64,000 bases of DNA, taken from positions 26,447 to 90,446 of the forward strand of contig JANRIL010000032.1 of the NCBI GenBank assembly GCA_033764955.1, in the 5' to 3' direction. Below are positions 47,715 to 63,783 of the stretch, one piece after another. The position numbers were made by a program, and so were the translations under genes. How positions within the stretch are numbered: position 1 is the stretch's first letter; the number at the start of each line of letters is the position of its first letter. The notes under the pieces were generated by a model that made no database searches, was not told where the DNA came from, and saw nothing but the letters and a program-made list of their open reading frames with translations. The DNA is from Cyanobacteriota bacterium (GTDB taxonomy: Bacteria > Cyanobacteriota > Cyanobacteriia > Thermostichales > Thermostichaceae).

Positions 47715-48044
47715 AATATTTCCCTGAAACTCACTTCCTATGCAAATACTACAAATGTAATATGCCATTGTCAAGCTCCCAAAATTAAAAAAGGTCATAG
47801 ATATCATGAATAATTTAGATGGTGCTTAGGTGATTCTAAAACCAAGTTAGTTGGCTGATTATCCATGCAAAAATCTGATCGATATGAGGATCGATCAAGC
47901 CAACTTATTCATGAAAAACTCTCGATCAATAGTGAATTTTTGACTCAAATAGGGATCCCTTTTCTTCGCCGTGGAATAGCTCCTAACCATTGGGCGGAGC
48001 GAAGGGATCCCTTAGGTAACAGACAAGGAAACGAATGGATTGGT

Positions 48045-48449: not shown

Positions 48450-48968
48450 TTAAGGATGGTGATGATAATGGTCACGCCAAAACAATTCAGCAAAAGCAAC
48501 CGTGGGATGCATGGGAGCTTTGGGTTTGGTCAATAAGGGCATGGCAGCTTGTTCGGGGGTGCGGTTACCTTTGCGCTGGTTACAGGTTTCGCAAGCGGTA
48601 ACAAGGTTTTCCCAGGTATCTCTGCCCCCTTGCGAAAGTGGAATGACATGATCCAGAGTGAGGTGATGACCACAACCGCAGTATTGGCAGGTGTGGTGGT
48701 CTCGCCTAAACACGTCGCGGCGGTTGACCGCCGGAACCCTCCAGCCCCGTTCGCACCCTCTGGTCAGGAGGCGAATGTGTTCGGGAACCTCCAGCACCTG
48801 ATGGGCAGAACGGATCCGCCAGATCGGAACATTCATCAGTAGGAGGGGTTCGGCTTTGCCCGTCAGCAAAAGAACAATCGCCCGCTTGATGGGGATCCGG
48901 GTGATGGGCAAATAGTTTGGCGAAAAAACCACGATGGACGCTTGCAAAAAATGAGTGGCTACGGTCAT
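48450..48968 (-). CDS. HNH endonuclease (McrA-like)
   Basis: [11 protein letters not shown]...[13 protein letters not shown]...[25 protein letters not shown]. Confidence 0.93.
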
Positions 48969-48985
48969 GGTTCGCTCCTCAACGT

Positions 48986-49019
48986 AAAACCCCCGCTTCG
49001 TGGGTGTGAAGCGGGGGTT
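48986..49019 (-). terminator. Attenuator terminator between the leader ORF and the HNH gene
   Basis: AACCCCCGCTTC-N8-GAAGCGGGGGTT 12-bp stem ending in UUUU. Confidence 0.75.
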
Positions 49020-49040
49020 GAGAATAAACGGATTCTCTTC

Positions 49041-49292
49041 CTAGATGGGTACAGCTAGCCTGTACCTCCCGCTTTGTGTAAAGTATGGTTTGCCGCCATC
49101 GGGCTTGCCGAAGAAGTTGCTAGTCATAGACCACCCACGATGGGAAATGGGGGCTTGAATCGGGTAAGTCGTAGCCATGCCAGCAGCCGTTCTGGTTAGT
49201 GCCGCTATCTCCAATGCCAACATGCCTACACTCTCACTGCCGAGGCAGAGGGAGATAGGAGATGAAAGCAGGCGGAGAAGCAGAAGGCTCAT
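49041..49292 (-). CDS. Putative leader peptide (83 aa)
   Basis: GAGGAG RBS before the ATG; its 3' end carries a sequence complementary to the terminator's 5' arm. Confidence 0.55.
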   Translation of the reverse strand: MSLLLLRLLSSPISLCLGSESVGMLALEIAALTRTAAGMATTYPIQAPISHRGWSMTSNFFGKPDGGKPYFTQSGRYRLAVPI

Positions 49293-49334
49293 GACACTCT
49301 CCTCAAGAGGAGGATGATAAGGTTAATTGCGCTT

Positions 49335-49364
49335 ATACTACACTGGTATTACAGGGCTTGTCTA
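49335..49364 (-). promoter_or_regulatory. Putative sigma70 promoter with an overlapping repeat operator
   Basis: TAGACA-N18-TAGTAT; GTAATAC-CAGT-GTAGTAT repeat overlaps the -10. Confidence 0.5.
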
Positions 49365-49478
49365 GTCTTTTATCCAGAAATATCTAGAAAAATATCCAGA
49401 AATTTTTTTGCCTTTTTTCACGAGCCAATTGGTTCAGAGAAGATTGAGCCGGATTACGCTAAGTCACCTGAGGGGGCA

Positions 49479-50801
49479 TTAAGGCTGAAGGGGATCCCGG
49501 ATGGATAGCCAGTCTTGCCCCACTTTGATGGTGATATCCGAGTCAAGGGTTCCTGTAGACTCGACGATGGTTTGCCCTAGACCCAACAAAGACTGTACTT
49601 CTAAAGCTCCTTGTAAATCTCCTTGCTGAGCAATGATCTGGGTCTGCTCAAGCATTTGGTGGGCATCTTCGACAGCAAACACCGAGGTAAAGCCTTTGTT
49701 GCGTAGTTCCTGAGCCATCTTACGGGCTATCTCCGCTTGTCCGGTCGCGTTTTGAACGGCAATCCGCAGGCGATTCGGGGGGGTGGGCAACAGGTCTCCC
49801 TGGCTGGGTTGAGCGTCAAAATAGTTGACGGCAATTTGATAGACCCCCTCTGGGTCGGGGAGCCAATAACTGGTGGAGTATTCGTAGGGCTGGCTAAATC
49901 GCCCCGGCAGCAAGACCATATCTAGGCTATCTTGCCCGGAGGTAAGCATAAATTTGGCTAAAGAGAGCAGCTCTTCCCAGGTGAGGTTGGTGTCAAGATT
50001 ATCTCGCACCGCTTGAAGAATGACGGGCGCTTTTGCCCAGGTGGTTGGTTTGAGCAGTTCTAGGCTGAGGGCACGCATGAGTTGCTGTTGCCGTTGCACC
50101 CGCCCGATATCGCCGAGGGCATCTTGGCGGAACCGAACAAATTGGTGGGCTTGTTCCCCATTTAACCGCTGCAAGCCCGGTTCGAGATCAATATAGAGTT
50201 TTTGGGTGACATCGGTATATTTCATCCGCTCCGACACATAGACTTCTACACCCCCCACCGCATCGATTAGGGCGGCAATGCCTTGGGAGTTGAGGCGGAC
50301 GTAGCGATCAATTGGGATGTCTCCTAGCATCTGACTGACCACCCGTGCTGTTAGAGCCGGACCACCTAAGGCATGGGCAGCGTTAATTTTTTGGGTTCCA
50401 TAGCCGGGGATGGGCACACGGGTATCGCGGGGAATGGAAAGCAAAGCAATTTTGTTGGAGTCAGGATTAAATCGGACAAACAGCAAGGTATCACTCCGCA
50501 CAGGTAGGTTGGAGTGGCTGGTTTGTTGATCCTCTTCAGAATCAATGCCATCCACACCGAGCACCAAAATATTCAGGGAGTAGTCGAGGGAGGCTGCTCG
50601 TAGCTGATCATCCCGAAAAGCGCTCTTGTCTGCGGGGGAGAGGATCTGTGGCATGATCTGTTGAGGCAATAACACCGCCACTAAAGCGCCTGCTGTTCCG
50701 GCAAAAACCGCCGTAAAACCAAACAGCAACCACAATAGCCAATGCTCAAAAGCGAAAGAACGAGGGGATCCAGCGCGGCGAGGGTGAGGGAAGGATGACA
50801 T
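49479..50801 (-). CDS. LCP (LytR-CpsA-Psr) family protein with LytR C-terminal domain
   Basis: NILVLGVD, RSDT, SIPRDT, KINAA, RFRQD..GDIGRVQRQQ, VQNATG. Confidence 0.92.
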   Translation of the reverse strand: MSSFPHPRRAGSPRSFAFEHWLLWLLFGFTAVFAGTAGALVAVLLPQQIMPQILSPADKSAFRDDQLRAASLDYSLNILVLGVDGIDSEEDQQTSHSNLPVRSDTLLFVRFNPDSNKIALLSIPRDTRVPIPGYGTQKINAAHALGGPALTARVVSQMLGDIPIDRYVRLNSQGIAALIDAVGGVEVYVSERMKYTDVTQKLYIDLEPGLQRLNGEQAHQFVRFRQDALGDIGRVQRQQQLMRALSLELLKPTTWAKAPVILQAVRDNLDTNLTWEELLSLAKFMLTSGQDSLDMVLLPGRFSQPYEYSTSYWLPDPEGVYQIAVNYFDAQPSQGDLLPTPPNRLRIAVQNATGQAEIARKMAQELRNKGFTSVFAVEDAHQMLEQTQIIAQQGDLQGALEVQSLLGLGQTIVESTGTLDSDITIKVGQDWLSIRDPLQP

Positions 50802-63387: not shown

Positions 63388-63783
63388 GGGGCTGTAACGG
63401 TTTCGACGAGGTGGCGAACCAGGATTGATGATGCAGGTCGGGATTGAGCTTATCCCGTTATCAACAGGCTCAAAACAAGTACGTGCGAACAACGTCGTAC
63501 CCTTTGCTCGTAAAGCCGCCGTCTTGGCTGCCTAAGACTCAGATCCTAGTAGATTTTTGAGTTCGAGAATCCTCCGATGACTCCGTTAAATGGGAGGATT
63601 TAACCCCAACGGACGCTGCTCTAGGTCTTCTCCTCGGTCGAGACAGAGCCTAAGCCTAGACTGAGGAATCCTGCCACTGGGATCAATAGTGGACCTTGTT
63701 TCTAGGGTTTTAGAAACTAAACCTGTGAATGATTCAGTCCCCAATACCCATTTCGGACACGGGTTCGACTCCCGTCAGCTCCA
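63388..63783 (+). ncRNA. ssrA: tmRNA; tag ANNVVPFARKAAVLAA* at 63485..63535
   Basis: 5' GGGGCTGTAACGGTTTCGAC; 3' GGGTTCGACTCCCGTCAGCTCCA; cyanobacterial-type tag. Confidence 0.97.

Follow-up and report, generated by a model that had tools for sequence, protein, structure and literature searches.

How can a gene for a small HNH endonuclease be transcribed when an intrinsic terminator stands directly in front of it? This question is raised by a locus in a 64,000-nt stretch of a genome of the cyanobacterial family Thermostichaceae (hereafter the window, to which all coordinates refer), in which the leader, the terminator and the operon that follows are all encoded on the minus strand. The ribosome-binding site of the HNH gene starts 6 nt past the U-tract of the terminator, which leaves no room for a promoter between them, so that the HNH gene is expected to be transcribed by read-through only. 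Upstream of the terminator lies an 83-codon leader open reading frame (ORF). With a confidence just short of even, the region is read here as a ribosome-coupled transcription attenuator located behind a TrcR-controlled promoter.

A preliminary description of the locus, made from the sequence, had given its anatomy, and all the elements that it named were confirmed: the leader ORF, a G-rich segment at 49074-49064 (the antiterminator segment, AT), the hairpins P1 and P2, and a 12-bp terminator. AT lies inside the last codons of the ORF and is complementary to the 5' arm of the terminator, the leader stop codon is found in the junction between P1 and P2, and P2 adjoins the terminator. The arms of the latter are AACCCCCGCUUC (5' arm, 49019-49008) and GAAGCGGGGGUU (3' arm, 48999-48988), and the 3' arm is followed by UUUUACGUU, the final U of the run being 48986. 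The terminator hairpin alone, with its G+C-rich stem, has a predicted folding energy of -23.1 kcal/mol, and the 111-nt region folds far better than its shuffled versions (z -4.9; 0 of 200 shuffles fold as well). A simple terminator scan had missed this hairpin because it requires five T in eight bases. The stop codon, placed at 22 nt from the terminator in the preliminary description, is 21-22 nt from the stem, the exact value varying with the inclusion of the first A-U pair. The antiterminator had been described as a 10-bp helix with one bulge. This pairing is possible, but the last three bases of AT (GGU) are common to P1, which means that the 10-bp AT helix and P1 cannot both be complete, and the antiterminator state chosen by RNAfold consists of 7 bp (AAGCGGG:CCCGCUU) plus a GG:CC pairing in which the GG (49040-49039) stands beside the stop codon.

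The combination of these features is not due to chance, as the arrangement recurs in 65 distinct cyanobacterial sequences. Directly upstream of the HNH gene, orthologous loci present the G-rich segment, P1, the stop codon, P2, the terminator CCCCCGCUUC/GAAGCGGGGG and the U-tract in this order; loci with the element include those of Nostoc, Calothrix, Coleofasciculus, Halomicronema, Chroococcidiopsis, Alkalinema and Leptolyngbyales. A covariance model built from 36 sequences of orthologous HNH loci matches 71 of the 151 genomes of the class (62 of the 131 of good quality) and 50 of 81 genera, with one copy in the genome of the window and a maximum of five copies per genome. The same model did not find the element in the five nearest relatives from genus g2 (G001, G008, G012, G015 and G016). 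Cross-tabulation shows that the element is carried by 44 of the 55 genomes in which a close HNH ortholog is present, and by 27 genomes in which none is. About half of the 65 copies were collected via the HNH gene, which biases the count of HNH genes downstream: the first downstream ORF is HNH-like in 46 copies, a member of the alr0857 family in 15 and an HNH fragment in two, while two of the 65 have no ORF of at least 90 codons beginning within 400 nt. Of the 15 multi-copy and family loci examined, six are followed by arrays of 7-15 tRNA genes, and in four of the 65 copies the module stands intact in front of pure tRNA arrays or of HNH remnants. As far as sequence comparison goes, the element is a new structured RNA family absent from Rfam. 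At the gathering score, Rfam recognizes nothing in the window beyond the tmRNA and two tRNAs, and at E values up to 10 it returns only chance-level rows, and no family, for positions 48800-49500.

The leader ORF is present throughout. Upstream of AT, one frame remains open for at least 63 codons in all 65 copies (median 80 codons, versus 17 and 4 in the other two frames), and this frame is identical relative to AT in 63 of them; in the window it is open for 84 codons, versus 18 and 16. In an alignment of 23 Nostocales rows, the indels of the ORF body all have lengths divisible by three (6, 12, 21 and 36 nt). In the two large peptide families, the ratio of nonsynonymous to synonymous substitution rates (dN/dS) of the leader is 0.58 and 0.45, versus 0.12 and 0.08 for the HNH gene in the same genome pairs, and the dS of the leader (0.5-0.7) lies below that of the HNH gene (1.1-1.3), which points to a constraint at the nucleotide level. 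The bodies of the peptides fall into families of 22 and 21 members and 17 small groups. No relative of the 83-aa peptide of the window was found among proteins of 45-146 aa in a large word-indexed protein database, and when this peptide, trimmed at its C-terminus, was compared by jackhmmer with the 64 remaining leader peptides and with shuffled decoys, it recovered only itself. The positional equivalent of the ORF in Anabaena sp. PCC 7120 is asr0855, listed as a hypothetical protein of 83 aa, the same length as in the window. The sequence data thus describe the leader ORF as a conserved reading frame that evolves in frame, whose peptide is weakly constrained and whose translation is predicted. 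A start at the ATG located after GGAG-N9 in Nostocales, which would yield a 47-codon ORF, was dropped because the region upstream is conserved as protein across orders and because the 83 aa of Anabaena asr0855 fit a start at GTG, at the 5' limit of the open frame.

Conservation of the frame at homologous loci, proposed as a check in the preliminary description, is accompanied by a stop codon that holds a fixed place relative to the RNA structure, between the loop of P1 and the start of P2, in 64 of the 65 copies. By alignment column, it is located at position 42 in 40 copies, 48 in 12 and 39 in two, inside P1 in 10 and elsewhere in one, and the three stop codons are all used (TAG 33, TAA 22, TGA 10). 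In 59 of the 65 copies, 20-38 nt separate the stop from the C-run of the terminator. The leader of the window contains no run of codons for one amino acid (the preliminary description had noted none except early Leu), and no stalling motif was identified in it. From the alignment, the position of the stop codon is the only conserved feature that would place a ribosome.

Constraint at the RNA level is visible in AT and in each of the hairpins. Third codon positions inside AT are 86-97% invariant, and the CCCCGCU core of the 5' arm of the terminator is invariant or nearly so in the 65 copies. In an alignment of the 65 sequences that was fitted to the covariance model, and which therefore favours the counts of compensatory pairs, 95.8% of the cells of the terminator are paired and five of its pairs show compensatory changes; the values for P1 are 85.7% and five of seven pairs. 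G-U pairs occur in the terminator stem in 13-16 sequences per position, a frequency that fits RNA rather than duplex DNA. The U-tract consists of 5-7 U in 64 copies, and P2 forms a hairpin of at least 4 bp in all 65 (median z -1.95). The AT helix is paired in 91.9% of cells, versus 37-55% in slid controls, and two relatives of family f1 (G014 and G017) retain it with an altered sequence, GAAGC-GUCGG against CCGAC-GCUUC. When nascent transcripts ending at the 5' arm are folded, AT pairs with this arm and the three-way junction forms in all 65 copies when the upstream flank is 0 or 30 nt long, in 59 when it is 100 nt and in 60 when it is 250 nt, and the alternative pairing is thus available in every copy. 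In comparison, the natural sequence located 40 nt upstream forms such pairs in 12 of the 65.

Some loci exhibit variants of this design. In three loci of Coleofasciculaceae/Microcoleus (L025-L027), about 85 nt upstream of the terminator, a copy resembling the 5' arm, GACCCCCGCCGGGG, pairs with the 3' arm of the terminator in the minimum free energy (MFE) fold of the full-length sequence, and the partner of the G-rich segment is a displaced portion of the 5' arm, which may represent a further alternative structure in this clade. Two other HNH loci (L015 and L016) hold a different terminator (GCCCCCG...CGGGGGUUUUU) preceded by CUGCGGGGCAG, and may be a diverged version of the design that falls outside the model. 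In two relatives of genus g2 (G014 and G017; loci L134, L135, L005 and L006) the operon is split: the leader, the terminator and alr0857 are found at one locus, and at the second the HNH gene is located behind operator-like repeats and a conserved 5' untranslated region (UTR) of about 130 nt, with neither a leader ORF nor a terminator.

Judged by its sequence, the locus is identified as asr0855-alr0856(HNH)-alr0857, an operon that belongs to the translational-stress regulon published for TrcR, because it matches the alr0857 family and HNH, its operator carries the TrcR motif, and the genome encodes a trcR homolog. The HNH gene is an ortholog of alr0856/all8564. The operator at 49352-49335, read on the plus strand as ATACTACACTGGTATTAC, coincides in 17 of 18 bases with the published motif ATACTACACTTGTATTAC (PMC10272220), and it is the sole match without mismatches in its own genome. 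Repeats of the operator type are located no more than 150 nt ahead of the first in-frame start codon in 30 of the 65 copies under a strict pattern and in 19 more under a loose one, and the sequence of the leader promoter is kept in G004 and in 23 Nostocales rows. The leader ORF occupies part of the first ~340 nt of the predicted transcript. The trcR homolog of the genome (G000:C38:12209-12538) shares 61% identity (E 4e-39) with the gene that is divergent from the Nostoc leader, holds an operator-like site 35 nt upstream, and matches no Pfam family at E values up to 0.001.

TrcR is a ribbon-helix-helix repressor, and in Anabaena sp. PCC 7120 the operon promoter is common to the divergent trcR gene (PMC10272220). 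In a trcR mutant of this strain asr0855, alr0856 (HNH) and alr0857 are upregulated 9.2-, 7.2- and 8.5-fold, respectively; the regulon is induced by chloramphenicol, spectinomycin and streptomycin, and chloramphenicol induces asr0855 and alr0857 (PMC10272220). In addition, long tRNA arrays have a conserved HNH "homing endonuclease" gene upstream, and the gene and the arrays are induced together (PMC8421152). The preliminary description had suggested that the leader senses translation stress in general. This agrees with the induction of the regulon by elongation inhibitors, but the published mechanism is the action of the TrcR repressor at the promoter (PMC10272220, PMC8421152).

In the proposed mechanism, AT and the 3' arm of the terminator would compete for a single 5' arm. 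If no ribosome is near when the polymerase completes the 5' arm, AT would pair with it and close a three-way junction formed by the AT helix, P1 and P2, and read-through would follow. A ribosome that keeps pace with the polymerase and reaches the last codons or the stop would instead unwind P1 and P2 and keep AT away from the 5' arm, allowing the terminator to form. Ribosomes that are slow or stalled, such as those exposed to elongation inhibitors, would therefore lead to more read-through, and the attenuator would add a direct check of translation speed to derepression by TrcR. This differs in one respect from the scheme first put forward, in which a ribosome at the stop codon masks the antiterminator: such a ribosome would not cover 49074-49064, as AT lies 22-31 nt upstream of the stop in most copies, and it would separate the two strands rather than mask one of them. 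AT reads GGGAGG in 48 of the 65 copies, a sequence to which the translating ribosome could pair through its anti-Shine-Dalgarno tail, thereby masking AT directly. Read-through had also been expected to reach both the HNH gene and the tRNA cluster. The first part stands, given that the HNH gene is too close to the terminator to have its own promoter, but in the window the tRNAs have a TrcR-type promoter of their own and a terminator-like hairpin follows the alr0857-family gene. In other genomes, the same module would guard tRNA arrays.

Attenuation is the most economical reading because the long ORF always reads into the competing segment and the stop is fixed in the junction, and it is favoured because the module is kept before pure tRNA arrays, where only transcription can be controlled. 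A broader version, more doubtful than attenuation itself and put forward tentatively, is that the module is a self-contained sensor of ribosome speed that forms an AND gate with TrcR and travels with horizontally spreading tRNA arrays, and which would be the first class of leader-ORF attenuators in the phylum. If this were so, the extra tRNAs, the HNH nuclease and the alr0857 protein would be made only when elongating ribosomes lag behind the RNA polymerase.

Several observations weigh against attenuation. The tandem 9-nt repeats covering the -10 box and the start site suffice, once transplanted, to confer chloramphenicol control on a foreign promoter (PMC8421152), and the attenuator is thus unneeded for induction. 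Shine-Dalgarno-like sequences are weakly enriched before the candidate starts of the leader (33 of 65, versus 443 of 1300 in the control), and the leader is 64-148 codons long without a regulatory codon run. The AT helix is nearly invariant, with changes on both sides in only one of seven pairs, meaning that its pairing is deduced from conserved complementarity and not from covariation. When the 12-nt AT is shuffled with its composition preserved, at least five pairs with the C-run are still formed in 1013 of 1300 trials; G-richness alone suffices for the result of the nascent folds, a test whose control is weak. Moreover, the terminator state of the window (-40.1 kcal/mol) exceeds the antiterminator state (-27.7 kcal/mol) in stability by 12.4 kcal/mol, and the antiterminator could therefore act only kinetically, as in classical attenuators.

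Expression data from Anabaena also stand against it. In the RNA-seq of PMC10272220 (Supplementary Data 2), the values for the wild type and the trcR mutant are 23.4 and 214.6 for asr0855 (252 nt), 97.1 and 701.5 for alr0856 (546 nt), and 46.8 and 397.1 for alr0857 (390 nt), figures with ambiguous units that are affected by the loss of short transcripts during library preparation and by 5'-edge effects, and that come from another species. Neither a surplus of the leader nor a drop past the terminator is observed in these data in unstressed wild type or trcR mutant, whereas efficient termination during normal translation would predict the reverse; the caveats weaken this objection, but do not remove it. 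This result is compatible with read-through by default, in which the polymerase outruns the ribosomes, with a leaky terminator, or with a post-transcriptional role.

The leaky terminator is part of an alternative that is rather unlikely but has to be taken seriously, namely that the ORF is an ordinary small-protein gene (the asr0855 family) whose own partly leaky terminator sets a fixed ratio between the leader and the downstream genes, with AT and P1 being conserved, for instance, for a C-terminal SGRY...VPI motif or for the stability of the 3' end of the transcript. The similar fold changes of the three Anabaena genes, which reveal no regulated step, agree with this proposal, as do the dN/dS values below 1 in the two large peptide families and the annotation of asr0855 as a hypothetical protein of 83 aa; besides, the frame relative to AT is the same in 63 of 65 copies, and a C-terminal motif is consequently conserved too. 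A protein motif, however, does not account for third positions in AT that stay invariant across taxa of differing G+C content, for compensatory substitutions in P1 that alter the peptide (such as Y to C, or AVPI to LTPT), or for the 10 copies with the stop inside P1, in which the C-terminal residues are dispensable. The bodies of the peptides are not detectably related across families, the peptide of the window lacks any relative, and the terminator stem exhibits an invariance of sequence that plain terminators do not need.

A post-transcriptional role of the structures is improbable, less so than the alternatives that follow it. Cleavage at the A/U-rich junction might leave a protective 5' hairpin on the HNH-alr0857 mRNA, or P2 stacked on the terminator might couple translation by re-initiation from the leader stop to the HNH start. 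The RNA-seq signal of the downstream genes, at least as high as that of the leader, would fit this option, and so would the contact between P2 and the terminator and the short distance, 3-20 nt in most copies, from the U-tract to the Shine-Dalgarno sequence of the HNH gene. In the window, CUCAAC, just 5' of the C-run, can in addition pair with GUUGAG of the HNH ribosome-binding site, but this pairing is not conserved. Furthermore, the next gene begins 9-213 nt away in 15 of the 65 copies, the module is intact before tRNA arrays without an intact protein gene directly behind it (L103/L122 and L126), and this option offers no role for the conserved G-rich segment or the tract of 5-7 U.

It is very unlikely that the three-way junction is an aptamer for a metabolite or a protein (such as a product of the operon or a ribosomal component) that stabilizes the antiterminator independently of leader translation. 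A compact junction is predicted in all copies, an antiterminator facing a terminator 12 kcal/mol more stable needs extra stabilization, and the element matches no Rfam family; nevertheless, the P1 and P2 loops are free to differ between copies, in length as in sequence, the sole conserved bases of the junction are explained by the stop codon (TAG, TAA or TGA), and the long conserved ORF that reads into the element is left unexplained. Finally, a palindrome acting at the DNA level, where it would serve the HNH "homing endonuclease" and the mobility of tRNA arrays as a site of recognition, homing or recombination, is hardly credible, since the unusually invariant stem and the presence of up to five copies per genome beside tRNA arrays reported to spread horizontally (PMC8421152) are outweighed by strand-specific G-U pairs in 13-16 sequences per stem position, by P1 and P2 that covary as hairpins, by a U-tract that is always on the sense strand and by an orientation that is always that of the ORF and the downstream genes.

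A structured RNA directly upstream of a gene with an HNH domain is also found in HEARO and the omega-RNA of IscB. The element described here differs from them in that it matches no Rfam entry at E values up to 10 and contains an ORF, predicted to be translated, and a terminator, and in that the 172-aa protein matches only the HNH part of the IscB model (partial NCBIfam matches to the HNH domain, below the cut-off, with 58 bits versus 175).

The closest parallels to the proposed attenuator are to be sought among leader-peptide systems. The classical ones control the trp, his, leu, thr and pheA operons of enterobacteria. As in these, a leader ORF (here predicted to be translated) is followed by an intrinsic terminator that immediately precedes the first structural gene, a segment further upstream would compete with the 3' arm of the terminator for the 5' arm, the position of the ribosome is expected to decide, and the terminator is thermodynamically stronger than the antiterminator. 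Unlike in these, the leader has 64-148 codons instead of 14-32 and holds no run of codons for one amino acid, the stop codon is placed inside the antiterminator junction, and the genes placed downstream are those of a stress nuclease operon and of tRNA arrays rather than biosynthetic ones. In addition, no anti-antiterminator (segment 1) is evident here, and the absence of a ribosome should thus result in read-through and not in super-attenuation. A second group is that of the antibiotic-responsive, ribosome-mediated attenuators of Firmicutes, such as bmrB-bmrCD, vmlR and lmo0919, in which read-through follows the slowing of ribosomes, and not the lack of one amino acid, the signal is translation stress, and the leader can be tens of codons long. 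These likenesses are accompanied by differences, as the attenuators of Firmicutes control resistance genes (ABC-F proteins or transporters), while the module described here would be a second layer behind TrcR, spread through the phylum and linked to the HNH gene, the alr0857-family protein and tRNA arrays.

With the TrcR regulon and the trn (L-array) operon of Anabaena sp. PCC 7120 the locus shares the genes (asr0855, alr0856/all8564 and alr0857), the operator over the -10 box and the linkage between HNH and tRNAs, but in the published account regulation is due to the repressor alone (PMC10272220; PMC8421152). The terms terminator, attenuat-, leader and antitermin- do not occur in the main text of PMC8421152, a supplementary figure of which draws an undiscussed "orf1" beside all8564, and the part of PMC10272220 examined makes no mention of a terminator. 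The literature search, with incomplete journal coverage and supplements covered in part, found no account of this attenuator: the operon, the repressor and the link with tRNA arrays are already published, while the leader-terminator switch is not in the literature searched.

In cyanobacteria, a tRNA array, the HNH nuclease, RtcB and other genes are switched on through TrcR when elongation is inhibited (PMC10272220; PMC8421152), and how translational stress is sensed is considered an open question in the Discussion of PMC10272220. With its leader ORF and switchable terminator just behind the TrcR operator, the conserved module offers a concrete candidate by which ribosome speed could be read out directly and in cis, and the element also explains why the HNH gene lacks a promoter of its own. 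A survey from 2016 found no reliable data for attenuation in cyanobacteria (PMC4833913, Discussion), a gap that the element would fill if it works as proposed. If it does not attenuate transcription, the invariant stem and the fixed position of the stop still need to be explained.

Table 1. Positions of the features of the leader, the operon and the adjoining tRNA genes in the 64,000-nt window
Feature	Position	Strand	Details
Three tandem TTTCTRGATA repeats	49371-49402	-	AT-rich stretch upstream of the -35 box; spacing 10-12 nt; read from the sequence
Promoter-like site of the leader	49364-49335	-	TAGACA, 18-nt spacer, TAGTAT; consensus scan, 9/12 matches; predicted start near 49328
TrcR-type operator	49352-49335	-	GTAATACCAGTGTAGTAT; tandem GTAnTAy repeats over the -10 box
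5'-UTR hairpin	49297-49316	-	UCCUC/GAGGA; MFE fold; pairs the leader Shine-Dalgarno GAGGAG (49304-49299)
Leader ORF	49292-49041	-	83 codons; ATG at 49292, TAG at 49043-49041
AT	49074-49064	-	AAGCGGGAGGU
Hairpin P1	49066-49048	-	GGUACAG (49066-49060), loop GCUAG, CUGUACC (49054-49048)
Leader stop codon	49043-49041	-	TAG
Hairpin P2	49037-49020	-	GAGAAU (49037-49032), loop CCGUUU, AUUCUC (49025-49020)
Intrinsic terminator	49019-48986	-	12-bp stem, 8-nt loop, U-tract
HNH endonuclease gene with Shine-Dalgarno	48980-48450	-	GAGGAG at 48980-48975; ATG at 48968; 172 aa; Pfam HNH_5 2.5e-16, HNH 5.8e-16
alr0857-family gene	48425-48045	-	126 aa; NCBIfam NF045647, E 1e-33, 116 bits versus a cut-off of 75
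Terminator-like hairpin after the alr0857-family gene	47875-47898	-	Consensus scan
Second TrcR-type promoter/operator	47774-47746	-	TTGACA, 17-nt spacer, TAGTAT; operator ATATTACATTTGTAGTAT at 47763-47746
Gln-rich ORF	47714-47517	-	65 codons; downstream of the second operator; no Pfam match
tRNA-Glu(UUC)	47407-47330	-	Downstream of the second operator
tRNA-Gln(CUG)	47296-47222	-	Downstream of the second operator

Besides the elements of the proposed switch, the 5' part of the locus holds two further features (Table 1). The three TTTCTRGATA repeats are unlike the repeat recognized by TrcR and may bind another factor. At a place equivalent to that of the 5'-UTR hairpin, a hairpin of different sequence is found in G004 (L002, about 1218-1238). 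The leader promoter is immediately preceded, on its own strand, by a gene of the LytR_cpsA_psr family (49479-50801).

With respect to the downstream genes, cyanobacteria contain two classes of small HNH proteins, one being the stress-operon type, present in 55 of the 151 genomes, and the other a distant paralog (about 45% identity) present in nearly all of them, which in the genome of the window is located at G000:C45:67605-68036. The AlphaFold model of the alr0857-family protein is confident (pLDDT 90.5) and consists of beta sheets and three helices, with no convincing fold match either in Foldseek against the PDB (best E 0.07) or in a wide VIA-align comparison (best Z 4.1). This gene is found directly behind the module in 15 of the 65 copies, and it may be alr0857, rather than HNH, that constitutes the constant cargo. 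The second operator, the Gln-rich ORF and the two tRNA genes resemble a two-gene miniature of the stress-induced tRNA arrays, provided with its own promoter. Elsewhere in the window, on the plus strand, a tmRNA gene (63388-63783) encodes the tag peptide ANNVVPFARKAAVLAA.

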